The translations under genes and the position numbers were made by a program. A model generated the notes under the pieces. The model saw nothing but the letters and a program-made list of their open reading frames with translations, made no database searches and had not been told where the DNA came from. A stretch of DNA of 64,000 nucleotides, taken from Dictyostelium discoideum. Taxonomy: Eukaryota. Location of the stretch: contig CM000151.3 in NCBI GenBank assembly GCA_000004695.1, positions 5,984,001-6,048,000 on the forward strand, in the 5' to 3' direction. Shown here in pieces: positions 1 to 42,322 of the stretch (position 1 is its first letter; each line of letters opens with the position of its first letter).

Positions 1-5
1 AGTAG

Positions 6-503
6 TATTCTTTAACTGGAAGTAGATTAGCTGCTGCCATTGGAATTGATCGATACACTTCACAACATGATATAAAATTAATATTGGCGAAAAAGAAAAC
101 CCCATTCTTTAGTGACTACTGTAAAAAGGCAATGGGACATGGAAAACACCAAGAACCAAAAGCAAGAGAATTTTATTTTAATGAATTGGAGACTTCAATT
201 ATCGAAAAGGGTATCTTTCCATTGCCAGGCGACAAAAGAATTGGATGTTCTCCTGATAGGGTAATTTACACAACAGTACCTGGTAAAGATGGAGTTTTAC
301 AGCGTGAAGGAGTTATTGAAATTAAATGTCCACTATCTGCCACGAACTTCAGTGGCCTAAAGAATGGTAGAAAACCTGATGCCTTAGCTAATGCTCAGAA
401 AATACCTCTAGATTACATTCCACAAATATTTGCAAACATGGCATGTACTGGGGCACAATGGTGTGATTATATATGTTGGGTTCCAGGTGGTATACTTTTG
501 TAG
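6..503 (+). CDS. YqaJ-like viral-recombinase/PD-(D/E)XK exonuclease domain protein, 5'-partial (open from nt 6; window edge, probable upstream exon)
   Basis: In-frame translation from nt 6 is YSLTGSRLAAAIGIDRY...GCSPDRV...GVIEIKCP...IPLDYIPQIFANMACTGAQWCDYICWVP. This matches the YqaJ/lambda-exo family motifs (iTaSxxaai.G, SPDG, ExK-CP, IPxxYxxQvQxQMxvTG..cDf). No ATG start is present: the track ORF 84..503 starts at TTG. All three frames are closed before nt 6, and nt 1-5 (agtag) could be an intron acceptor. Codon usage is GC-richer (GGC, CGT, GCC, CTA) than surrounding host genes. Confidence 0.5.
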   Translation, partial: YSLTGSRLAAAIGIDRYTSQHDIKLILAKKKTPFFSDYCKKAMGHGKHQEPKAREFYFNELETSIIEKGIFPLPGDKRIGCSPDRVIYTTVPGKDGVLQREGVIEIKCPLSATNFSGLKNGRKPDALANAQKIPLDYIPQIFANMACTGAQWCDYICWVPGGILL

Positions 504-699
504 AAGGGTATTCTTTGATACAAATGTATGGAAATTTATTTATTCGTTATCAAAATTATTTATAGATACACCTTTAAATGAAATACCTTTAAAGAATGAA
601 AAAACATTAATAATAAATACATTACTCTTACAGAAACTTAAAGTTTTAAATCCACACCTAAATATTCATGTACGAACTAAATTATCAAAAAAAATAATA

Positions 700-1125
700 A
701 AAAATAAAAAAAATAATTTCTAATGGCTTATAATAATAATTCTTTTATTTTAAAATAATAAAAAATAGAAAAAGTTTTAAAAAAAAATAATAAAAAAAAA
801 AATTCTAATGGCTTTTATAAAGATTATTTTAAAATTGAAAAAAATAAAAAAATTTAAATTTGTAAACTGATTAATGTTACACTATTAATGTCTTCGAAAT
901 ATCTATTGAATTTTCTAAAGATATTTGAAGGTTTCAGAGAAACAGTTTTTTAGGAATAATTAATGATTTTTTCTAATGGTTTTTCTAATGATTTTCAGTA
1001 TAATGATTTTTAAGATAATAAAAAATTGATTTTTTTTTGGGGTTTTGGGGAAAAGATATTTATTGGAGAATATTTCCTAGTTTCTTTATAATCATTTTAC
1101 AAAAAAAAATTTTCTAACGGTTTGA
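700..1125. repeat. Dispersed array of motif (A)TTCTAATGGYTT (about 5 copies near 717, 808, 974, 986, 1113), plus two degenerate ~45-bp direct units beginning GGGGTTTTGGGG.../GGGGTTTAGGTG...
   Basis: Read directly from the sequence. The motif copies are each embedded in A/T-rich spacer downstream of the YqaJ ORF. Confidence 0.4.
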
Positions 1126-1631
1126 TTATAATCATCATGGGGTTTAGGTGAAAAGAAATTTATTAGGGAATGTTTTGTTTTTCAATTCATTTTCAAAAAT
1201 ATATAAATAATGGTTAATGTAAATTTTTGTAAGGTACCAAGAGGAAAGAATGGAGAAAATGTTAAAGTATGTCTATTCATATAGTTAAAAAAAAATATAA
1301 ATTTATTAAATATAAATATAAATTAACATCATTTTTTTCTTATTTTTTTTATAGGTTCTTAATAATGATTATTTGACAATCATACAGTTTAAAATTAAAA
1401 AATTGTTTTAAACCATCACTTTTTTTGAACACATGAAAATAAATAAGAAATAAAAATAAAAAGATAAAAAAAGATTTTTTTTTTTTTTTTTATTTTATAA
1501 TTATTCTTGTCGTCAGTATTGTTACTATAATTAATCCCATGAGTTTTTTTTATTATTATTTTTAATTCTTTTATATTTGAGATGATTATTATTAATTAAA
1601 TGACTTTGAGTTTTTTTTTTTATTTTTCTAT

Positions 1632-1805
1632 GCCCAAAATTACCATATTAATTTCGGCAGCCATATTAATTTCAGCCTAAAATAGTTGGTCTGTGCATGC
1701 CAAAATAATATGGCTGCTGAAATTAATATGGTATTACTAGCAGACATAAGTCCCATGCCAAAACTATCATATTAATTTCAGCAGCCATATTAATTTTGGC
1801 ATGGG
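1632..1805. repeat. Structured repeat cluster: three ~45-bp units in forward / inverted / forward orientation, each containing two copies of CCATATTAATTTC and flanked by CATGCCAAAA / TTTTGGCATG arms
   Basis: Unit 1 is 1632-1678 (gcccaaaattaccatattaatttcggcagccatattaatttcagcc). Unit 2 is 1696-1738 and is its reverse complement (catgccaaaataatatggctgctgaaattaatatggta). Unit 3 is 1755-1805 (catgccaaaactatcatattaatttcagcagccatattaattttggcatg). The 13-mer CCATATTAATTTC occurs about 6 times in both orientations. Confidence 0.7.
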
Positions 1806-2057
1806 ACATTCCATCGATTTAAATTTTTCTAAAGTTTTTTTATTTTTTTATTTAATTAATTATTTATTTTTTTATCTTTGTAAAGCAATGACTGATTTTG
1901 ATATTAGTGATTCAGAAGAAAAAGATATTAGAAAAAATGATGTAAAAGTAAGAAAAAAAATTGAAAAAAAAATTAACACCAATGGTGCACCTGATGACCA
2001 ATTTGTCATTACATAAAAACAAAAATGAATAAATGGTGGCAACAATGTGTCCCTTAA

Positions 2058-2825
2058 AAGTATATTTTTGAAGAGTGGTCGCCACATATAATTCAAAAAA
2101 TCTTTGATAGAAATAAGGCCATTATTGATGCTGGTTTACAAAAATATACCGATACTAGAATTCTCTTTATTTTAGATGATATTATTGGTGAAGATAGTTT
2201 TAAAAACGATGAAGTTTTAAAAAATGTTTTTATTTTGGGTCGTCATTATCATGTTGGATTTATGATATTAACACAGTATGCTTATGCTCTTCATCCATTG
2301 GTTAGAGGTAACACTGATTATGTTTTAACCACACTTCAATCACAAAATCGTCAAAGGGAAGCCATTGCAAAGGATTATGCTGATATTGTTGATAGAAATG
2401 CATTTTATGAACTTTTGGATAAAAATACTACCGATAATCATCTATTGGTTATCGATTTATCAAAGCCAACCATTAATGTCGATGATGTTTTCTCTCGTTT
2501 CAAAGCTGATAATCCAGGGCCATTTAGGGTGGGATCAGAAAAATGCTGGGATAAACATGAAAAACAAATTCAAATGATATATAATAAAGTTAGATTGGAA
2601 ATGGGTTGGTATTCAGAAGAAGATCAAGAGATAAGAAAGAAAAAATTTAAAAAAAAACTTGAAAAACATGAAAAAAAAGAAAAAGAAGTTGAAGTAAATA
2701 TTGAAAAACTTCCAAAATCAATAGAGAAAAAAAATGAAAGTAATGAAGAAGACAATGAAAAAAATCAAATAAATTTTTTAATTTTAATTTTTTTTTTTTT
2801 TTTTTTTTTTATAATCTTTTATTGA
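2058..2825 (+). pseudogene. FtsK-HerA / poxvirus-A32-like DNA-packaging ATPase, C-terminal fragment (Walker B and sensor region present, Walker A region absent)
   Basis: Frame-3 translation after the stop at 2055-2057 gives ...RILFILDDIIGEDSFKNDEVLKNVFILGRHYHVGFMILTQYAYALHPLVRGNTDYV.... This carries the hhhhDD Walker B, the GRHxxxS...TQ sensor and the Arg/Asn-Tyr motifs typical of A32-like packaging ATPases of NCLDV, Polintons and virophages. No GxxGxGK(T/S) occurs in any frame between 1801 and 2057. Confidence 0.45.
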
Positions 2826-3189
2826 TTTCTTTAATGTTTGTTAAAAGTTTTTCTTGAGTTCCAAAAAATGTGAGATAAAATGGGACCCCAAAATTTGGAT
2901 CACCTCTAAATATAGAACTAACACCATTCCCAATGAGAAGTGTTAAACATACACCCATCGATAGCTGAAGGCTCGATGATAAAAGTAAATCATTAGTTGA
3001 TGTTTGATTGATTTTATATCGATAATCTCTCAATAAATCATTTTCCATTATAACATGTAAACTACTATCACCTTTCTTTGGTTCTAAAACATATTTATCG
3101 AATGATTCATCGAGTTTATGGCCAACATATGACCCAATTAATGCTTGTGCTAATCCATGAGAAATTGCTGTAATTACTTCATTAGCCAT
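2809..3189 (-). CDS. hypothetical protein, member 1 (3'-most) of a compact collinear minus-strand ORF cluster
   Basis: ORF of 126 aa (MANEVITAISHGLAQALIGSY...). It starts 8 nt downstream of the stop of the preceding ORF (tagaaaaaaaaATG). Composition is coding-like and GC-richer than host genes. No family recognised. Confidence 0.3.
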   Translation of the reverse strand: MANEVITAISHGLAQALIGSYVGHKLDESFDKYVLEPKKGDSSLHVIMENDLLRDYRYKINQTSTNDLLLSSSLQLSMGVCLTLLIGNGVSSIFRGDPNFGVPFYLTFFGTQEKLLTNIKEINKRL

Positions 3190-3197
3190 TTTTTTTT

Positions 3198-3524
3198 CTA
3201 AAGACCTGTTTTAATATTTGTTCCAATGGATGGTGGTTTTTCTATGTAAATTAGAATATGTTGTCCATGGGCTAACATTACTTCATATTGATTTTCCAAT
3301 GAATGATTGTTGTCGTGAATTTTTTTAACGCTTCTAACTATTAATGCATCACCCGATAAAGTGTGTAATTCATTTTCTCTAATCCACGATTTTGCTGTGG
3401 GATCTAAAGCAATTGTTTTTTTAACATGTGATTCAATTTTATCATGATGATGGTCGTCTGATATTGAAATGAATTGACTATAAATAATTCCAGCTGCTAT
3501 TCCTCCTAATAAATAATAGTTCAT
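3198..3524 (-). CDS. hypothetical protein with N-terminal hydrophobic segment, cluster member 2
   Basis: ORF of 108 aa (MNYYLLGGIAAGIIYSQF...HHHD...). Its ATG lies 4 nt after the stop of the 3529..3726 ORF (taaaaaaaATG). Confidence 0.3.
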   Translation of the reverse strand: MNYYLLGGIAAGIIYSQFISISDDHHHDKIESHVKKTIALDPTAKSWIRENELHTLSGDALIVRSVKKIHDNNHSLENQYEVMLAHGQHILIYIEKPPSIGTNIKTGL

Positions 3525-3528
3525 TTTT

Positions 3529-3726
3529 TTATTTCTTTTTATTTAAAATATCCTTTAGTTTTTCTTCATTTAATTGAATTTGAGATTTTATTTCTTCATC
3601 GGTCTCTTTTCTTTTTTGGGATCTTTCTCTGCTATTCACTTCATTGGTCATCCTAATGGTTTCAGCAATAGCAGCCACCGTTCTTAAAATAACTGGTGTA
3701 CGACCAATATCATACTTTATAACCAA
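3529..3726 (-). CDS. hypothetical small basic protein, cluster member 3
   Basis: ORF of 65 aa (MVIKYDIGRTPVILRTVAAIAETIRMTNE...). It sits immediately upstream of member 2. Confidence 0.25.
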   Translation of the reverse strand: MVIKYDIGRTPVILRTVAAIAETIRMTNEVNSRERSQKRKETDEEIKSQIQLNEEKLKDILNKKK

Positions 3727-3882
3727 CTCTTGGAATGTATCTTTAAAAAAATAAAACCTTAATTGGTTTTGTTTTATTTTGTGTAATAATCTTTATTTTT
3801 TTATTTTTTTTATTTATTTTTTTTTTATTTTTTTTATTTATTCTTATTTTTGCAATGATCTTTATTTTTTATTATTTTCTTT

Positions 3883-4230
3883 TTATTTTTCTTCTTTTTT
3901 TGTTGGGATATCTGTTCTTTTTCGTGTACCAGGAAAATTAAGATCCAAAATATTGATGGTAAAGAAATCTTGAATATTTTTATCTTGAACTAAATGATCC
4001 TCACCAATATAGTAGTTTAATACATCTCTGAATTGAAAAGGAGGTAAGGAACCATCTTCGTTAACTTTGAGTGATTGATAAAGTATTGATGCAGTTTTAT
4101 ACATTTCAAGTCTTTCTACTACTTCCTTGATACATTCTGCTGTACAATTTTTCCCAAATTCAAATTCCAATAAGTTATCATATTGAAAAAGGTTTTCAGT
4201 AAAATTTGGGTGGTGGTGGTTACGGTTCAT
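3883..4230 (-). CDS. hypothetical protein, cluster member 4
   Basis: ORF of 115 aa (MNRNHHHPNFTENLFQYDNLLEFEFGKNCTAECIKEVVERLEMYK...). Its sequence is not low-complexity. Confidence 0.3.
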   Translation of the reverse strand: MNRNHHHPNFTENLFQYDNLLEFEFGKNCTAECIKEVVERLEMYKTASILYQSLKVNEDGSLPPFQFRDVLNYYIGEDHLVQDKNIQDFFTINILDLNFPGTRKRTDIPTKKEEK

Positions 4231-4258
4231 TTTTTTTTCTCTGTGTCAAAAATGAAAA

Positions 4259-4525
4259 TTATTTGTGTGAATTAAAAATAAAAATAAAAACAAAAATATA
4301 AAAAAAAAAAAATAAAAAAAAAAAATTGAAAAAAAAGGTCAACCCATGAGGAGCCATATTCCCGAAAACAAAGTATACCCCATTCCCATTAAAATGATTA
4401 ACTCTGGGCCAGACACCATTGGCGTTTTTTCTAATGAACATAATATCGTTAAACCATTGCGTGTTTGGAGTTATAGAATTGTCGTTGATAATACCAACAT
4501 AGTGATGTGAGTTACAGGAATTCAC
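4259..4525 (-). CDS. hypothetical ORF, cluster member 5 (5'-most); C-terminal part runs into a poly-F/low-complexity tract and may be truncated or a pseudogene
   Basis: ORF MNSCNSHHYVGIINDNSITPNTQWFNDIMFIRKNANGVWPRVNHFNGNGVYFVFGNMAPHG..., on the same strand as and 28 bp from member 4. Confidence 0.2.
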   Translation of the reverse strand: MNSCNSHHYVGIINDNSITPNTQWFNDIMFIRKNANGVWPRVNHFNGNGVYFVFGNMAPHGLTFFFNFFFLFFFFYIFVFIFIFNSHK

Positions 4526-4845
4526 AAAAAAAAAAGGATCAATAAAATAATTTTTAATAAAATTTTCATTTGGAGATAGTTATTTATATGAAGTATAATA
4601 TAATAAAAATAAAAAAATAAAAAAAATTTATACAAAAATAAAATGGTGAGAAAAATATTAATGTTTTTGAGTAAATTAGGTAAAAATTAAAAAATAATTT
4701 TTTTTATTTATTATTTTTTTTTTTTAATTTACAAATTTATTTATTATTTATTTATAATTTCTCACTTAAAAAATTAAGTAGTCATTGTTATTATTATTTT
4801 TTTTATTTTTTTTTTATTTTTATTTATTATTTTTTTTATTTTTTT

Positions 4846-5271
4846 TTGTTTTTATTTATTTTTTTTTTTATTTTTTTTTTGCTGTATATCGGTAAAGCAT
4901 CCCATCAAGAAGGAAGGGGTTTGTACAACAGAGGTTACACAGATCTAACTGGTGGCTCAAGGAGATGGGGGAATCCAAATTCAGACCCACCAGAAATGGC
5001 AAATGCTGAAGTTTTAATGTATTATAGAGGTTTTGATGGTCCAGTTGCTGGTCATGCTGAGTGGTGGTTCCTTTCAGTATTTGGGTGTCCAGAAAATAGT
5101 TTCAACGAGGGTGGTTTAAGGACATCTGAACACAGTTATGGCGCAGGTCAATGGAATTTTTTCCATGCAAATGCTCCCCCAGTTAATGTTCGTCAATATA
5201 TTATAAATCAAGATCCATCCCCCGGTTTTTTTTTAGATTTCAAAACTATCCATCTGCTCCAAGTATTATAA
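4846..5271 (+). CDS. hypothetical protein (GC-richer ORF; possible upstream start or exon unclear, internal ATG at 4996)
   Basis: ORF ...GKASHQEGRGLYNRGYTDLTGGSRRWGNPNSDPPEMANAEVLMYYRGFDGPVAGHAEWWFLSVFGCPENSFNEGGLRTSEHSYGAGQWNFFHANAPPVNV.... It uses many GC-rich codons that are unusual for Dictyostelium. Confidence 0.3.
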   Translation: MFLFIFFFIFFLLYIGKASHQEGRGLYNRGYTDLTGGSRRWGNPNSDPPEMANAEVLMYYRGFDGPVAGHAEWWFLSVFGCPENSFNEGGLRTSEHSYGAGQWNFFHANAPPVNVRQYIINQDPSPGFFLDFKTIHLLQVL

Positions 5272-5348
5272 GAAGAATTGTTGAATGTGAAACTGAACGA
5301 TTACACGCTGAAGGTCTTTCAGTTAAAGTTCCTGGTCTTCAAAATCAA

Positions 5349-6095
5349 GTGGTACATTTTCAAAATCAAGTGGTAAATCTTCAAAATGCAAACGAACTAT
5401 TGACAAACTATAATGCTTATTTGGCTGCAGCTCTTCTTAATGCTATGCCTCAGATTCCAAATCTAGATGGTTTTCTACCAGTATACGGTCCTGGGTTGGA
5501 AGTTTCAAGTGAAGCTATTCGTAATTGGAATGAAGCAAGAAAAAATGGCGGTGGTGGTATTGGTGGTGGTATCGGTGGCGGTGGTATTGGTGGTATTGGT
5601 GGTATCGGTGGGGTAGATGATGGTAAAAAGGGTGATGGTAAAAGAGGTTCAGGTGGTGCGGATGGTGCACATGATGGTTGGTTAAAATCTGGCTGTATTT
5701 GTCCAGAAACTCCTCCTTGTCCAGTAGTAATTCCATGTCCAGAGCCAGTGGTTTGTAATATAGCAAAAATTCAAATTCAATTGAATTCAACCATAAAAAG
5801 TTTGGATGAATGCAAAAAACAAAAGGACCAAACCAATGATAACCTCAACGTCTGCAAGTCCCATAAAGATGAGACACAAGATTGGCTCACCGACTGTCAA
5901 AAAGAATATGTTAAACAAACAAGTCATTCATCCAAAGATGATACTCTAATTTCTCTCAGAAACTGCCAAGCCGAATACCAAAAAGAAACATTCAAAAAAG
6001 ATAAGCTCTGCCGTGGTTTGTCCAAACATATCATTGGTTATCTCGATTTCTGTGAAGATAAGGTAGAAAAGCTCAAACTCGCTAATTGTGAATAG
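5349..6095 (+). CDS. hypothetical Gly-rich (GGGIGGG repeats) and Cys-rich protein; frame is open upstream to about 5222, so it may be spliced or frameshifted to the 4846 ORF
   Basis: ORF MVHFQNQVVNLQ...GGGGIGGGIGGGGIGGIGGIGG...CICPETPPCPVVIPCPEPVVC...CQKEY...CQAEY.... It starts at GTG in the track. The same frame continues upstream (…RIVECETERLHAEGLSVKVPGLQNQ). Confidence 0.3.
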   Translation: MVHFQNQVVNLQNANELLTNYNAYLAAALLNAMPQIPNLDGFLPVYGPGLEVSSEAIRNWNEARKNGGGGIGGGIGGGGIGGIGGIGGVDDGKKGDGKRGSGGADGAHDGWLKSGCICPETPPCPVVIPCPEPVVCNIAKIQIQLNSTIKSLDECKKQKDQTNDNLNVCKSHKDETQDWLTDCQKEYVKQTSHSSKDDTLISLRNCQAEYQKETFKKDKLCRGLSKHIIGYLDFCEDKVEKLKLANCE

Positions 6096-6518
6096 TTTTC
6101 TCATTTTTAAAAAAAAAAAAAAACAAAAAAAAAAAAATCATATAATGGTTTCCTTTATGAAATCAATAAAAAAATTCTTTAAATAAAATTTTTAATCTTA
6201 TTTTAAAAAAATTCTTTTAATGAAATCCATTATTTTCATTTTTTATAATTTTATTGAACTTTATTGAAAATAATTAGATATTGTTATTTCCAATGGTTTT
6301 AGATTGATAACGGTATAGATGTGACCATTAAATAGAAAACTATTAAAAATTGAGCCAAAGAAAAATCAACGATTTTTAATGGTTGTTTAAAGATTTCCTA
6401 TAGAAAATTTAAAATGATTTTTTTAAAAATATTTCAAAACCAATGTCATAAAATAAAAATTCTCAATTACTAAATATAAACATGTATAGATCATTAGGTT
6501 TATTTTTAAAAAAAAACG

Positions 6519-6773
6519 ATGGGTGCCCGTCAAAAAAAAGAAATTGAAGCAGATCCTGAAAGGGTAAAATTAATAAAAATTAAAAAAACACAAAAAAGAT
6601 TGGCCGAACAAGAAGAAAGAAGAAGGTTGATGCAAGAAGAAAGTGAAAGAAGACGATTGCAAAGACTTAGAGAAAAACAAGAGCCAATTAGAACCTTTGC
6701 AACTGCACAAGAAGCTCAACGATATATACCCAAACCTGGTAACTTTGCACGTAAAAGAGGTGCTAGAAATTAA
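6519..6773 (+). CDS. small basic charged (K/R/E-rich) protein, hypothetical
   Basis: ATG-initiated 84-aa ORF MGARQKKEIEADPERVKLIKIKKTQKRLAEQEERRRLMQEESERRRLQRLREK.... It uses the typical Dictyostelium AAA/GAA-rich codons. Confidence 0.35.
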   Translation: MGARQKKEIEADPERVKLIKIKKTQKRLAEQEERRRLMQEESERRRLQRLREKQEPIRTFATAQEAQRYIPKPGNFARKRGARN

Positions 6774-6846
6774 AAAAGAAAAAAGAAAAATAATTGAAAG
6801 AAATAAAAAAAAAAAAATTAAAAATTAAAAAAAAAATAAACTACAT

Positions 6847-6900
6847 CTCTTATATAAGAGGTGGCAATAGATAATAAAAGTACAATTAGAATTATTTTTT
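6847..6900 (-). pseudogene. 5' fragment of the small Cys-rich secreted-protein gene (truncated copy)
   Basis: The reverse complement encodes MKKIILIVLLLSIATS..., matching the N-termini of the 10199..10444 and 13672..13920 ORFs. Similarity stops at 6850. Confidence 0.5.
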
Positions 6901-7741
6901 TCATTTTTATTATATTTGTTTTTTTTTATTATTATTAAAAATTTGAAAAATAGATATTGGTATAATATTTAAATTATAAAAGTAAATAAAATTTTAAAAA
7001 GTATTTATATTAAAAAAAAAAAAAGAAAATTTTATTAGAAAAAATAAAAAAAAAAATAAAAATAGTTATTAATTATTAAAAAAAAAAAATTTGAAAAGTA
7101 AAGGTGCACCCATCTTAAAAACAAAAAAGGATGACTACATCGATCTTTTATTCCATAATTGTTATTTGAATATGACGACAAAAATTTTAAGCACCTATTG
7201 TAAATCAAAGAAAAAAATAAAAATAATTTTAAAAAGGTAACTTGCCAATACATAGATTTTATACCAATTTTTTAAAATATTTGAGAAAAATATTTATAAT
7301 TTATGAATTCCATTGGTTATTTTAAAATTAAAAAAAGTAAAATAATCTATAGATTTTACAGATAATTTTTAAAACCATGTGCAATTTAGTGTGTGGGTGA
7401 AAAAAATAAATTTAGATTTAACAAAAAAAAAAAAATTAAAAAAAAAAATAAATAAATAAATGAAAAAAATAAAATAGGAACTGGTTTAAATTGTTAAAAG
7501 TCATAATGATAAAAAATGTCAACTTGTGAAATAACAAGTGGTAATTGTAGGAATTTTCCATTGATTTTAGCAGTTGATTGTGCAATAATTATTCCAAATA
7601 CTAATTTTATTCATTCATTTTTAATTTATTCCTTGAGAATTTAAGTTCTAATTCAAAAAAATAATTTATTTTTAATTATATTTATTAATTGAGAATTTAA
7701 ACTAACTACATTTATAGTTATATTTTAATTTTTTTAGTGTC

Positions 7742-7776
<35 letters not shown>

Positions 7777-9401
7777 TAATTATTTATTTTTTATTATTTA
7801 TTTGTATTAATTTAATGAATTAATATTTTATTTATTCATTGCCAAATTAAATAAATAAAATTACATTTAGAGTTATAATTTAATATTAATATTAAAATGT
7901 TTTTTTTTAAACCTAATTTCAAGTGGGGTTAACTTTTTTTTTTTTCATTTTTTATATTTTATTTTTTAAGTTTATATGTTTCATGTAAAATCAAAAAGGG
8001 ATTTTTTAACCCCTAATTTCACCCTTGAAAAAAACACTTAATAAATTTAATAATATTTGGCAATAAAAATAAATAAAATGTATTCTTTGTTCATTAATTA
8101 ATAATATTTATGAAGTGCAATATTTAATTATGTGCTTTTTAAAATTTTGAGGGAAAAAATTAGACAATTTTAAAAAACTAAGTAAACTTAAAAAAATTAA
8201 GTAAACTTAAACTATTATATATATATTTTTTTTTTTTTTTTTTTTTTTTATTTTTTTTGATATTTAAATAAAAAATTTTGTTATTAAAAATATATCAAAC
8301 TATAATAATAATCAATATTTTAGATATTTAAAAATGTGTTTTGGGTAAATATTATTTAAAAAAAAAAAAAGAAAAAAAAAAAAAAAATTTTAATATTTAC
8401 AATTAAATAATATTTTTAGGGATGCTGATAAAATTGCAACAAAAGAAACTGTAAAATTGGTTGAAAAAATCATTGATGTTAAAAAAGAAGAATTTTTAAA
8501 AAATCAAAAAATTTTATCTGAATTTATGAATAAAGGATATGGATTAATATTAAAAAATGATTTCAAATGTTCAAGTATGGTAATGGGTATCGGAAGTAGT
8601 GGTTGTGGAAAATCAACAACTCTCAATTTGATGCATGGAAATAACTTTGTAACTGGAAAGGATTGTGGTGATGTTACTATGCAACTTTCAATACCAACTC
8701 CTTCTGTAAAATATCCAAATACTAAAGTAATTGATTGTGTTGGCTTTACTCCAAGTCTTTCAAGTTTTTGCAAATTAATTTTAATTTATTTCCAACGTGG
8801 ATTTTTTCCAGATTATTTTCTATATCCATCATCAAATGATAGAACTGAACAAATTGTCACACTCTATAGAATGATTAGAATGGATTATGTCAAAATAATG
8901 GTTGTCCCATTCTCTGCAAAAAACTATCATTCAAATATTGAATTAATAAAAGAAATTGACCCAACAATGTCAGAATCAGAGGTAGATACAAAGTCATTAA
9001 AAAAAGCTTTTAATAGTGATATGGTATCACATATTATTGAAAAATTGGCTGAAATTAAATTAAAAAATGATGAAACCCTTAAAGGAAAGGTTATAGTTGT
9101 TGAATCTCTTGATAAAGTTCCAGAAGTAATTGGTTCAATGAAAACAATGTTTTTAAATGAATTCTTTATTGGTGGTAAATTTATAGATTCAATAACCTAT
9201 GAACAATTTTGTGAAAATTCTTCAGATGATGATCCTCAATCAACAAAAATATTTTTGTATGGCCTTTTAGTTGATGCTATGAAAACTTTATCATCATTTG
9301 CCAAGTATGATAATAATGGCGTATTGATAGGAATCGAAGAACAAAAATTCTTAAAAGACAATTAAAATGGAATCAAAATAAATCCCAACAACAAATTACC
9401 A

Positions 9402-9437
<36 letters not shown>

Positions 9438-9568
9438 TTTAATTTTAGCTCAATCATTTTAAAAATATTAAAAAATTAAAAAAACTAAATGAATATTAGA
9501 AAATAAATCAATAAATAAATAAATTTTATGAAATAATAAAGTATTATAATTTAATATTATAGAATATG

Positions 9569-9599
<31 letters not shown>

Positions 9600-9990
9600 G
9601 TTCCTCTTTTATTTATTGAAGTATCAGATAATTATTAAACATATCTAAATATAACCTTTTCCAATGGGAATCATTCAGCTCGTTTGGTGGTTTAGGTCAA
9701 CTCAGAGAAAAAAAAAAATTTTATTTTTTAAATTTTATTTAATTTTTAAAAATTGTCTGCAAATTAGACTTTGGAAGATTTATTCAAAATTTTCTTTTTT
9801 TTTCAGATCAAAAATTTTATTTTGAATTTTGAAATTTAATTGGATTTTTGTTCAAGTAAAAGTAACTTATTTTATTCACTACCAATTTATATGTTATTGT
9901 GATAATCCTAAATAACAACAATTCATGAAAGAGAAAAAAAATTATTAAAAATAAAAATAAGTGCCTATCAGATAACTAATCAAAAAATTA
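6850..9990. repeat. Segmental duplication copy 1 (5'-truncated) of a ~3.5-kb tandem unit
   Basis: 6847-6900 matches the 5' end of the Cys-rich gene at 10375-10445. Spacer blocks (aaaggtgcacccatcttaaaaacaaaa..., gaattccattggttatttt, aaccatgtgcaatttagtgtgtgggtg) are shared with 10650-10980 and 14140-14410. The lsm6 segment is mostly deleted. The P-loop gene is intact. Confidence 0.7.
8334..9365 (+). CDS. P-loop GTPase-like protein (G1 GIGSSGCGKST, candidate G3 DCVG). Exons: 8334..8344 (ATGTGTTTTGG, tentative) and 8420..9365
   Basis: Exon 2 begins right after a ...tatttttag acceptor at 8419. A GTAAAT donor follows ATG TGT TTT GG at 8345. Both features are conserved in the pseudogene copy at about 12456/12544. 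The Walker A motif is in-frame. Confidence 0.5.
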
Positions 9991-10198
9991 TTTGGGAAAA
10001 CACACAAAAATAAATTAAAAAATTATATTATATGATAAACTTATTTTATTGTTAATGGATTTAATAATTAAATAAATAAATTCAAAGGGGGAGGGTTGTT
10101 GTTGAATATAATAATTTAGATAATTAGATAAATTGAATTTTGAGTATAGTTAGAAAGACCAAATAAATTAAAATTCAATTATCAATTGATTTCTATGT

Positions 10199-10444
10199 TT
10201 AATTATGAACTGCAGGTGATTGAGTTGGGGGATCAACTATAGGGAAGATACAGTTATATAAACATGTACCCAATGCTTCTGAACAAACTTCGAGTGGTAC
10301 TGAGATATCTGGCGAGTCAAAACCGGCAACACATAATTGGTAACTTTCTTTGCAAGTTTGTTTACATACGGTATTGAAAATTGAACAAAATGCTCCAGAG
10401 GTGGCAATTGATAATAAAAGTACAATGAGAATTATTTTATTCAT
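10199..10444 (-). CDS. small secreted Cys-rich protein (signal peptide + 8 Cys), paralog A
   Basis: 81 aa: MNKIILIVLLLSIATSGAFCSIFNTVCKQTCKESYQLCVAGFDSPDISVPLEVCSEALGTCLYNCIFP.... It has a hydrophobic N-terminus and a conserved Cys spacing shared with paralog B. Confidence 0.55.
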   Translation of the reverse strand: MNKIILIVLLLSIATSGAFCSIFNTVCKQTCKESYQLCVAGFDSPDISVPLEVCSEALGTCLYNCIFPIVDPPTQSPAVHN

Positions 10445-11007
10445 TTTTGTTTTATTTGTTTTTTTTTTAAAAATTAGAAAATTGAATGATAGAAATTAGT
10501 ATAATATTTAAATTAAATTATAAAATAAAAAAAATTTTAAAAAATATTTATATTGAAAAAAAAAAAAGGTAATTAAAATTATAAAAATTAAAATTAAAAA
10601 TAGATAAAGTTATTTATTATTAAAAAAAAAAAAAAAAAAAATTTGAATTGTAAAGGTGCGCCCATCTTGAAAACAAAAGAAGATGAGCGATTCGATTTGT
10701 TATTCCATAATTGTTAAGAATATGATGCCAATAATTTTAAGCCCCTATTGTTAACTGAACAAAGAAAAAAAAAATTATGATAATGGGTATAAAATGTAAT
10801 TTTAATAAGGCAACTTGCCAAAACTTACATTTTATACCCATTTTTTAAAATAATATTTATAATTTATGAATTCCATTGGTTATTTTAAAATAAAAAAAGT
10901 AAAATAAAATATAAATATAATTATAGATTATACAGATATTTTTTAAAACCATGTGCAATTTGGTGGGTGGTGAAAAAAAATATTAGATTTAAAAAAAAAA
11001 AAAATAA

Positions 11008-13385: not shown

Positions 13386-13671
13386 ATATTCAACATTCCC
13401 TTTAATTTTTTAAAGTATCACATAATTATGAATAAATTTTGTTTTTAAAAATTAGGTAAAAAAAACACAGAAAAATAAATTAAAAAATTAAATTATATGA
13501 TAAACTTATTTTATTGTTAATGGATTTAATAATTAAATAAATAAATTAAAAAGGGGGGGGAGAAGGGGTTGTTGTTGACTATTATAATTTAGATAATTGG
13601 ATAAATTGAATTTTGAGTATTGTTGGAAAGAACATATAAATTAAAATCTAATTATCAATTGATTTCTATGT

Positions 13672-13920
13672 TTATTTATGAACTGCAGGTGATTTGGTTG
13701 GGAAATCAACTACAAAAGGGTGGATACAGCTATATAAACATGTACTCAATACTTCTGAACAAATTTCGAGTGATATTATGATATTTGGCGAGTCAAAACC
13801 GAGAATACATGATTGATAACTTTCTTTGCAAGTTTGTTTACATTTGGTATTGAAAACTGAACAAAATGCTCCAGAGGTGGCAATTGATAATAAAAGTACA
13901 ATGAGAATTATTCTATTCAT
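13672..13920 (-). CDS. small secreted Cys-rich protein, paralog B
   Basis: 82 aa: MNRIILIVLLLSIATSGAFCSVFNTKCKQTCKESYQSCILGFDSPNIIISLEICSEVLSTCLYSCIHP.... This intact ORF is about 70% identical to paralog A. Confidence 0.55.
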   Translation of the reverse strand: MNRIILIVLLLSIATSGAFCSVFNTKCKQTCKESYQSCILGFDSPNIIISLEICSEVLSTCLYSCIHPFVVDFPTKSPAVHK

Positions 13921-14935
13921 TTTTTATTTATTTGGTTTTTTTTTTTTTTTTTTTTTTAACTAGAAAATTGAATGATAGAAAAAATTAAATTAAATTATAA
14001 TATTTAAATTAAATTATTAAATAAATAAAAAAAAAAATTTTTAAAAAGTATTTATATAAAAAAAAAAAAAAAAGTAATTAAAATTAGAAAAATTAAAATT
14101 AAAAATAGATAAAGTTATTATTAAAAAATTTTGAAAAGTAAAGGTGAACCCATAATGAAAACAAAAGAAGATGAGCGATTACTATGATGCCAATAATTTT
14201 AAGCACCTATTGAAAACTGAGCAAAGAAAAAAAATAATAAAAATAAAAATAATTATAAAATGCAACTTACCAATACTCACATTTTATACCCATTTTTTAA
14301 AATAATATTTATAACTTATGAATTCCATTGGTTATTTTTTAAATAAAAAAAAATATATATATAATGAGATTATACAGATATTTTTCTAAAACCATGTGCA
14401 ATTAAGTGTGAGGAGGAAAAAAAAATTAAGATTTTAAAAAAAAAAAAACGATTAAAAAAAAAAAATAATAAAATTTATTTATTATTTCTTTTTAATTGGA
14501 CTATTAATATAATTTATTTTGGAAATTTGAAAAATGAAAAAATGAAAAAAAAAAAAAAAATAAAAAAAAAATTAAAAAAAAAAAAATTAAAAAAAAAAAA
14601 AAATTTTCATAAAATTGTGATCTATTCAAAGCAATACACATCCGCAATCCCTTTTATTAATTAAACGGTTTAAAATAAAACAACTTGTTATTTAAATATT
14701 ACTATATTAATATATTATTATATTTAAAAATAAATATCAACATATAGTAATTTTGAATAATTAAAATATACCCAAAATAGTCTATTCACATAAAACATTT
14801 ATTCATAATCTCCACCCCACACACACATATTTATATATATATATAGCCACCCACTTTTAATAAATTAATAAATATATTAATAAATAAATAAATACACAAT
14901 AAATAAATTAATAAATTAATAAATTATATGAAAAA

Positions 14936-39630: not shown

Positions 39631-39715
39631 AATTTTTATTGATAAAAAACAAAAACGAAAAAGTTAAAACGAAAAAAAAAAAAAACAATTTCGTTTTTAA
39701 TTCATTATTTTCAAA

Positions 39716-42322
<2,607 letters not shown>

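Follow-up and report, generated by a model that had tools for sequence, protein, structure and literature searches.

The left ~6 kb of the 64-kb stretch of Dictyostelium discoideum AX4 chromosome 2 analysed here (the window) probably represent the non-functional fossil of an integrated double-stranded DNA (dsDNA) virus of, or near, the mriyavirus type (Nucleocytoviricota, Mriyaviricetes). The Mriyaviricetes, a recently defined class of small capsid-forming kin of giant viruses, resemble, according to one proposal, the giant-virus ancestor more than any other known lineage does. The block carries pseudogenes of a YqaJ-like exonuclease and of an A32-type packaging ATPase, corresponding to the neighbouring AX4 genes DDB_G0275905 and DDB_G0275725, as well as two small genes and a gene stump. 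An original prediction, made from the nucleotide sequence alone, had taken the block for a decayed virus-derived insertion, and this is borne out by viral homologues, in-frame stops, a frameshift and a deletion. Two 'hypothetical proteins' of AX4 would accordingly be relics of a mriyavirus-like virus, fuller and younger copies of which reside in wild isolates and sister species. To our knowledge, no natural virus of D. discoideum is known, and the literature calls this amoeba only a 'potential' giant-virus host; no prior description of the element in D. discoideum was found in the literature searched, coverage of which was incomplete.

Disabled genes of the viral block

The block was compared with five dictyostelid loci: a paralogous Dictyostelium copy (L001), Acytostelium contig DF837621.1 (L002), the D. 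discoideum allele of the window locus in assembly GCA_054883475.1 (L003), a copy from D. cf. discoideum (L004) and the terminal 14.6 kb of the 58-kb D. cf. discoideum contig JBTAPH010000006.1 (L005). In addition, profile hidden Markov models (HMMs) of gene families from viral IMG/VR loci (fam2 to fam24 below) were searched against the dictyostelid open reading frames (ORFs).

The YqaJ-like PD-(D/E)XK exonuclease pseudogene (1..723, plus strand; DDB_G0275905) is evident from Pfam, from a DNA alignment with L004 and from a viral-family HMM. As claimed originally, the translation of nt 6–503 belongs to the YqaJ family: it matches Pfam PF09588 (E = 2.6e-33, profile positions 10–150 of 150), contains the D (SPDRV), ExK (EIKCP) and Q (PQIF) motifs, and is annotated in AX4 as 'YqaJ viral recombinase domain-containing protein' (Q552V3). 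The corresponding viral-family HMM (fam10) matches window 6–500 with E = 2e-23. The gene starts ~250 bp left of the window. Alignment with the 94 %-identical L004 reveals (i) an AAG>TAG change at nt 3–5, inside the conserved domain, (ii) a 2-bp deletion near nt 487, which shifts the C-terminus to another frame ending at a stop at 721–723, and (iii) several more indels in the ~250 bp left of the window.

The A32-type (FtsK-HerA) genome-packaging ATPase pseudogene (1888..2825, plus strand; DDB_G0275725, Q552V2) is recognized from its homologues, from HMM searches and from an alignment of its lesions. A Walker B motif (ILFILDDIIGE) and the GRHYH...TQ region are present at 2058–2825 while Walker A is missing, in agreement with the original prediction. 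The inferred 5'-truncation did not hold, however: the ATG and the first 43 codons are retained at 1888–2016, and the gene is therefore internally deleted. Relative to its paralogue in L001, ~190 nt encoding GKRRSGKS (Walker A) are swapped for 24 nt, and a GAA codon is converted to TAA at 2055–2057. The L001 gene has its own, independent in-frame stop a few codons further on. In L004 (11860–13730) only the C-terminal third of the ATPase matches, the 5' part being unrelated sequence, and this copy is damaged as well. The annotated AX4 models of both enzyme genes bypass the lesions by invented introns; DDB_G0275905 and DDB_G0275725 should be corrected to pseudogenes.

Family membership of the ATPase was recovered only in part by the profile searches originally proposed. 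The fragment 2058–2825 itself has no Pfam match, but a profile of viral relatives (fam2) matches 2058–2822 with E = 2e-47, and the full-length Acytostelium homologue matches Pox_A32 with E = 7.9e-10 (39 bits, cut-off 22.8). The fragment is 96–99 % identical to D. discoideum proteins and 48–55 % identical to Acytostelium and other proteins bearing Pox_A32. A Foldseek search of the ATPase model against BFVD returned only Nucleocytoviricota A32-type ATPases as top matches (E down to 1.6e-12), with no virophage or Polinton-like virus (PLV) ATPase among the named entries of the top 50; given the low confidence of the model (mean predicted local distance difference test (pLDDT) 47.5, core 55–83), this outcome is weak evidence.

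Next to the ATPase gene, the predicted compact ORF cluster is present at 2809–4230 on the minus strand. Its first member is an intact 126-aa ORF (2809..3189) for a conserved small virus protein with the motif DPxFGxPF..Q..L, which shares 98 % identity with the counterparts in L001 and L004 and 39 % with that of Acytostelium, and is matched by the viral-family HMM (fam7) with E = 9e-7 and a clear alignment of the motif. The following 108-aa ORF (3198..3524) occurs only in the Dictyostelium copies, with a 10-aa indel relative to L001, and matches no IMG/VR family by HMM or hhalign. At 3529..3746 a stump of ~65–71 aa (65-aa ORF at 3529–3726) matches, with 100 % identity, the C-terminus of a DUF5767-family protein of which L001 retains all 274 aa; the remainder of the gene was lost at the nt 3746 breakpoint. 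Family fam21 matches the 274-aa protein of L001 (E = 3e-10) and its L002 orthologue (E = 5e-12), and its member on the 43.9-kb IMG/VR contig L069 matches Pfam DUF5767. By analogy, the 126-aa and DUF5767-family proteins are probably virion or membrane components.

The dN/dS ratios between copies are 0.33–0.36 for ATPase and YqaJ, based on 13–19 differences. Such values agree with copies that diverged under selection in a still active virus, prior to or near the time of integration, and decayed neutrally afterwards. The 'foreign' base composition that had been noted shrinks, upon windowed G+C and codon analysis, to a marginal difference: the mean G+C content at third codon positions is 0.20 (0.16–0.23) for the block ORFs versus ~0.16 (0.07–0.35) for ORFs elsewhere in the window (overall G+C ~22 %), with overlapping distributions (one-sided Mann–Whitney p = 0.02). 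A G+C peak of 0.39–0.44 at 5000–6000 is due to a Gly-rich (GGT)n and Cys-rich coding stretch.

Two non-coding features accompany the enzyme genes. The AT-rich spacer 3' of YqaJ (718..1123, plus strand) holds five same-strand copies of the 12-nt motif TTCTAATGGYTT. A motif scan yielded 8 matches in the 64 kb versus 2.8 expected, five of the eight lying just past the YqaJ stop, and a similar motif is also found 3' of YqaJ in L004; a role in viral regulation or termination is conceivable. A repeat search revealed three copies of a 39–41-nt repeat some 90 bp ahead of the ATPase start codon, in direct, inverted and direct orientation (1634–1672, plus; 1702–1742, minus; 1756–1796, plus; consensus CCAAAAnTAnCATATTAATTTCrGCAGCCATATTAATTT). 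This repeat is absent from L001, L002, L004 and L005 and was seen only at the window locus and its allele.

Viral gene order and related dictyostelid copies

Searching the ATPase profile against 1.84 billion representative proteins yielded 5156 matches. Among the ten best that were looked up, the named non-dictyostelid matches were from Cyanophora paradoxa and Pavlovales sp. CCMP2436. A 2026 preprint (bioRxiv 10.1101/2025.04.19.649669) describes Mriyaviricetes-related endogenous regions in glaucocystophyte and pavlovophyte genomes. Like the dictyostelid copies, these are integrated mriyavirus-like regions in protist genomes; the Cyanophora and Pavlovales matches may lie in the regions of the preprint, the main text of which mentions neither dictyostelids nor Amoebozoa.

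A scan of IMG/VR with the dictyostelid ATPase alignment returned nothing, and a 28-sequence ATPase alignment proved too diverse. A 6-sequence alignment of the next-nearest relatives retrieved 80 IMG/VR loci on contigs of up to 44 kb, the gene order of which resembles that of the window. A YqaJ homologue is encoded in 66 of the 80 loci, upstream of the ATPase and on the same strand in 63 of these, with a median gap of 1.4 kb as compared to 1.16 kb in the window. The 126-aa family is present in 71 loci, invariably directly 3' of the ATPase (71/71). VLTF3 is encoded in 75 of the 80, and genes for an NCLDV (nucleocytoplasmic large DNA virus)-type major capsid protein (MCP), an A22-like RuvC and DUF5767 proteins lie nearby. 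Contig L069 combines Pfam matches to YqaJ, Pox_A32, Pox_VLTF3 (E = 1.5e-19), DUF5767, Capsid_N/Capsid_NCLDV and Pox_A22 within 11 kb.

The conserved genes of mriyaviruses (PMC11253617) comprise those for MCP, A32 ATPase, VLTF3, VLTF2, RuvC and a YqaJ-homologous PDDEXK nuclease, and further for an HUH endonuclease (in all mriyaviruses), helicases with archaeo-eukaryotic primase (AEP) domains, a minor capsid protein (mCP) and several 'Mriya' proteins; DNA and RNA polymerases are lacking from these 35–45-kb genomes. In Pleurochrysis endemic virus (PEV) 2, the genes are arranged as PDDEXK (28), 27, 26, ATPase (25), VLTF3 (24), mCP (23) and Mriya_51 (22) (PMC11253617). The IMG/VR contigs share this order, and the window keeps its first part, i.e., YqaJ, spacer, ATPase and small gene.

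Further copies of the element are located at non-homologous loci, namely L001, L004, L005, a second AX4 YqaJ gene, D. dimigraforme and Acytostelium, the flanks of L001 and L004 being unrelated to those of the window locus. YqaJ homologues of 44–99 % identity, many of them truncated, come from several assemblies of D. discoideum, from D. cf. discoideum and from D. dimigraforme, and include the second AX4 gene (XP_636305.2). The fuller copies add the following genes. (i) An AEP-type primase adjoins YqaJ in L002, L004 and L005 (AEP_C962R or Prim-pol 4, E ~1.5e-4). (ii) A deoxynucleoside kinase (dNK) is present in the fuller copies. (iii) A RuvC-like 190-aa 'IDPG' protein is encoded at L001 13812–14384 and L002 3422–3994 (fam24, E ~1e-10; hhalign 96.8 %), a viral member of this family matching Pox_A22 with E = 5.7e-7. 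(iv) Proteins of 187 aa (L001) and 177 aa (L002) display the HUH-type motifs SNFxLTINTN, GRVHxH and YIxK, and an HMM built from them finds homologues in three IMG/VR loci. (v) A Cys-rich 404-aa VLTF3 homologue at L005 5159–6373 is matched by the viral-family HMM (fam4) with E = 1.6e-13 and by Pfam Pox_VLTF3 with E = 1e-4 (22.5 bits, below the cut-off of 25). (vi) A family of 300–350-aa proteins (fam15) matches L002 (E = 1.7e-6) and L005 (E = 1.5e-8). (vii) An MCP-like ORF of Acytostelium (L002 16883–18133), in which capsid-like motifs are visible, aligns with the NCLDV-type MCP family of IMG/VR (hhalign 84 %, E = 7.6e-6; run with '-M 50' and positive controls). A search of a 5.8-billion-protein database with this ORF returned only itself, and no MCP was found in the Dictyostelium loci examined.

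Two observations concern the gene models and neighbours of these copies. The annotated 650-aa product of L002 9338–11724 fuses the AEP-primase-like ORF with the YqaJ ORF. Beside the element, L001 16923–19028 and L005 3200–4303 encode a low-complexity-rich protein with a weak match to an integrase-type H2C2 zinc finger and no rve core, the two versions being 30 % identical to each other.

The copies fall into lineage A (window, L001 and L004), members of which are 90–98 % identical and therefore young, and the more divergent lineage B (L005). L005 shows uninterrupted reading frames between 3200 and 14100 for YqaJ (250 aa), the AEP primase-like protein, VLTF3 and dNK, which marks it as a possibly complete or active element. 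Mriyavirus-like endogenous elements apparently occur in this model amoeba and in related species, some of them young and one with seemingly uninterrupted reading frames. Rather tentatively, the D. discoideum complex may be considered a present or recent host of an integrating mriyavirus-like virus of at least two lineages.

Class assignment and alternative origins

Likeness to the Mriyaviricetes, i.e., Yaravirus brasiliensis and the Pleurochrysis endemic viruses ('Gamadviridae'), comprises the YqaJ-type nuclease and A32 ATPase in the window and, in the sister copies, A22-like RuvC, VLTF3, an AEP-primase domain, a short HUH-motif protein and a candidate NCLDV-like MCP. To these add the virion-protein families fam15 and fam21/DUF5767, and no DNA or RNA polymerase was seen in these partial loci. 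Moreover, Acanthamoeba, the known host of Yaravirus, is likewise an amoebozoan. On the other hand, the dictyostelid copies differ from mriyaviruses in being chromosomally integrated and mostly decayed; their primase is stand-alone or joined to YqaJ in a gene model, with no helicase fusion in the loci examined; the 126-aa gene points the opposite way from the ATPase gene; and the element comes with dNK and the H2C2 zinc-finger protein. The marine relatives are only 32–41 % identical in sequence.

Several points weigh against a mriyavirus-like origin. The class assignment follows from gene content, synteny and nearest neighbours rather than from a phylogeny with named Yaravirus and PEV references. 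Viral homologues exist for only four genes of the window itself, and a comparison of the ORFs between 3201 and 6092 with 32–60 viral families by HMM and hhalign gave no match, the segment 3746–6100 showing no detectable viral homologue. VLTF3, RuvC, the HUH-motif protein, the primase and the MCP-like gene were found solely in other copies, and no single contig examined carries the full set of them. The HUH assignment is motif-based, its sole family match being a weak one to Gemini_AL1 (E = 0.048), with no PDB match. The MCP-like ORF was detected by hhalign only, with negative HMM, PDB and Pfam searches and an AlphaFold pLDDT of 41. Finally, absence of polymerases was judged on incomplete contigs (Acytostelium 25.8 kb; L005 contig 58 kb).

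Alternatively, the block might be a scrap of a far larger giant-virus insertion, i.e., a giant endogenous viral element (GEVE) from Megaviricetes or Pokkesviricetes, an origin that appears unlikely. Giant viruses, too, encode A32, YqaJ, VLTF3, A22-like RuvC, AEP primase and dNK, and only 14.6 kb of the 58-kb L005 contig were examined. Furthermore, integrated, eroded and rearranged NCLDV-type genes are a trait shared with GEVEs; for those of Euglena, erosion by duplications and invasion of transposable elements is described. Unlike GEVEs, however, the dictyostelid copies measure kilobases rather than hundreds of kilobases, and the order YqaJ–ATPase–small gene–VLTF3 is that of IMG/VR contigs of up to 44 kb. 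Neither PolB or other DNA polymerase, RNA polymerase, D5 helicase nor other large NCLDV genes were found in the ~75 kb of dictyostelid loci, all of which are partial. Homologues of the HUH-motif protein are encoded on the related IMG/VR contigs, the HUH endonuclease being conserved in all mriyaviruses.

The original prediction had favoured a 'Polinton-like' element, and a fragment of a Polinton/Maverick or PLV (Preplasmiviricota), with ATPase and capsid genes from that lineage and YqaJ as an accessory, is less likely again. Polysphondylium, D. fasciculatum and Acytostelium are known to harbour Polintons with protein-primed DNA polymerase B (pPolB). Polintons and PLVs are likewise small capsid-encoding dsDNA elements integrating in protist genomes, A32-type ATPases are common to both phyla, and element sizes could be similar (Acytostelium contig 25.8 kb). 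Yet the hallmarks of Polintons were not found: neither the window block nor L001–L005 contain a pPolB ORF or Pfam match, an adenain-like protease or terminal inverted repeats (the block being flanked by direct repeats), and in place of an rve core L001–L005 offer only a weak Integrase_H2C2 zinc finger (E = 0.0036) on the 701-aa protein of L001. Instead, the ~75 kb of related dictyostelid loci encode VLTF3, for which no homologues are reported outside Nucleocytoviricota (PMC11253617), A22-like RuvC, the HUH-type-motif protein and AEP primase. Genes for NCLDV-type MCP (Capsid_N, Capsid_NCLDV) and A22-like RuvC adjoin those of the closest relatives of the ATPase, and no virophage or PLV ATPase stood among the named entries of the top 50 in the BFVD comparison. 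With the gene set and order of Mriyaviricetes in its relatives and no Polinton hallmarks, the block is therefore read as a mriyavirus-like fossil.

That it is an ordinary host locus, with anciently acquired genes serving the amoeba (e.g., in domesticated recombination or defence), is highly improbable: AX4 annotation as protein-coding genes, intact 126-aa and 108-aa ORFs, near-host composition and the dN/dS values would agree with it, but stops, frameshifts and the missing Walker A have inactivated both enzyme genes (lesions circumvented only by the models' introns), the copies lie at non-homologous loci with different flanks and have gene content and order as in viral contigs, and dN/dS from so few differences is compatible with divergence during an active virus phase.

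A mriyavirus-like origin would imply the following history. A copy of the element would have inserted in chromosome 2 and been reduced to YqaJ, ATPase, two small genes and the stump; the reduced copy would have been fused, at nt 3746, with a second segment that had diverged, whereupon nonsense, frameshift, deletion and inversion mutations accumulated. The DNA might have entered the chromosome by host end-joining or with the aid of either the HUH-motif nuclease or the H2C2 zinc-finger protein accompanying two copies; the latter might act in tethering or integration. In the living virus, the A32-type ATPase would, by family analogy, pump the genome into a double-jelly-roll capsid, the YqaJ exonuclease would resect DNA ends for recombination-dependent replication or repair, the HUH-motif nuclease, primase and RuvC-like resolvase would start replication and resolve its intermediates, and VLTF3 would act as the late transcription factor. 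What remains in the window is most likely genomic debris with no likely present function.

A mriyavirus-like origin would widen the host range and endogenisation record of the Mriyaviricetes to social amoebae. If, on the more tentative reading, the D. discoideum complex is or recently was host to such an integrating virus, this model amoeba would gain its first natural virus system, and the virus would be the first Nucleocytoviricota relative to endogenise routinely in Amoebozoa. Dictyostelid biologists gain concrete sequences for probing an active or inducible virus.

Right-hand segment, boundaries and host surroundings

The 95–100 % match to L001 (9927–12085) ends at window nt 3746. Past this point, the segment resembles L001 6482–8052 at only ~50–57 % amino-acid identity. 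It contains a 115-aa ORF (3883..4230, minus strand), the sole homologue of which is a 57 %-identical ORF adjoining the L001 element copy. The N-terminal coding part of the next gene lies on the wrong strand (4259..4534, minus), as evident from tblastx: window 4534–4343 (minus) corresponds to L001 7453–7647 (plus), and window 4891–5270 (plus) to L001 7669–8052 (plus), pointing to a local inversion or rearrangement. The remainder of this gene (4885..6095, plus) encodes a conserved domain 49 % identical to L001 7411–8088, followed by a frame change near 5228–5240 and a Gly-rich and Cys-rich coiled C-terminal region up to 6095.

The gene at 4259–6095 has no PDB or Pfam match, and Pfam searches with the other block ORFs (108, 115, 65, 88, 141 and 248 aa) gave nothing significant. 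A GIY-YIG nuclease, considered for 4259–5270 and L001 7411–8088 on account of GVYFVF...YIGKG...R...E motifs, was rejected: Pfam and PDB are unsupportive, and the L001 copy begins with a signal-peptide-like segment. The only tie of the right-hand genes to the element is the paralogue that also adjoins the L001 copy. Beyond nt 6100, nothing in the window resembles the element.

The boundaries were defined with the allele L003, which corresponds to window 1–10506 at 99.97 %, adds 10 kb upstream and contains host genes on both sides. The remainder of the element had been expected upstream of the window; L003 shows it to extend only ~0.6 kb further, followed by a 1.32-kb repeat and host genes (an MTR4-type helicase and a Membrane_bind-domain gene). 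Upstream similarity to the other copies ends at L003 ~9481–9526, a point equivalent to where the L004 primase gene terminates. The rest of the element is missing from the window locus altogether.

The AT-rich 1.32-kb sequence is a direct repeat, the right copy of which (6857..8181) shares 98 % identity over 1328 bp with the left copy, located 591–1913 bp left of the window start (L003 8173–9495). Both copies bracket the whole block and an 84-aa ORF. A viral direct terminal repeat was considered and discarded: none of the other element copies (L001, L004 and L005) has the repeat, which therefore looks like duplicated local DNA. It may represent a duplication made at insertion or a later local rearrangement.

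The 84-aa very basic (R/K/E-rich) ORF at 6519–6773, originally taken as the first host gene, lies within the repeat-bracketed segment; it has no Pfam match, and the allelic assembly has no gene model at this position. Right of the block, clearly host-like genes begin with one at 8334–9365, which is split by a single 75-nt intron and codes for a P-loop protein of 318 aa (GSSGCGKST; weak ABC_tran match, E = 0.005). A dispersed 0.5-kb repeat (75–89 % identity) flanks the insertion at window 10041–10591 and 13462–14077 and at L003 6876–7403, probably belonging to some local gene family or repeat. No tRNA gene is present near the insertion. Far to the right, window 39701–42319 contains a long ORF with almost pure A/T codon stretches (sub-ORFs 2 % G+C), typical of homopolymer-rich Dictyostelium coding sequence and unrelated to the viral block.

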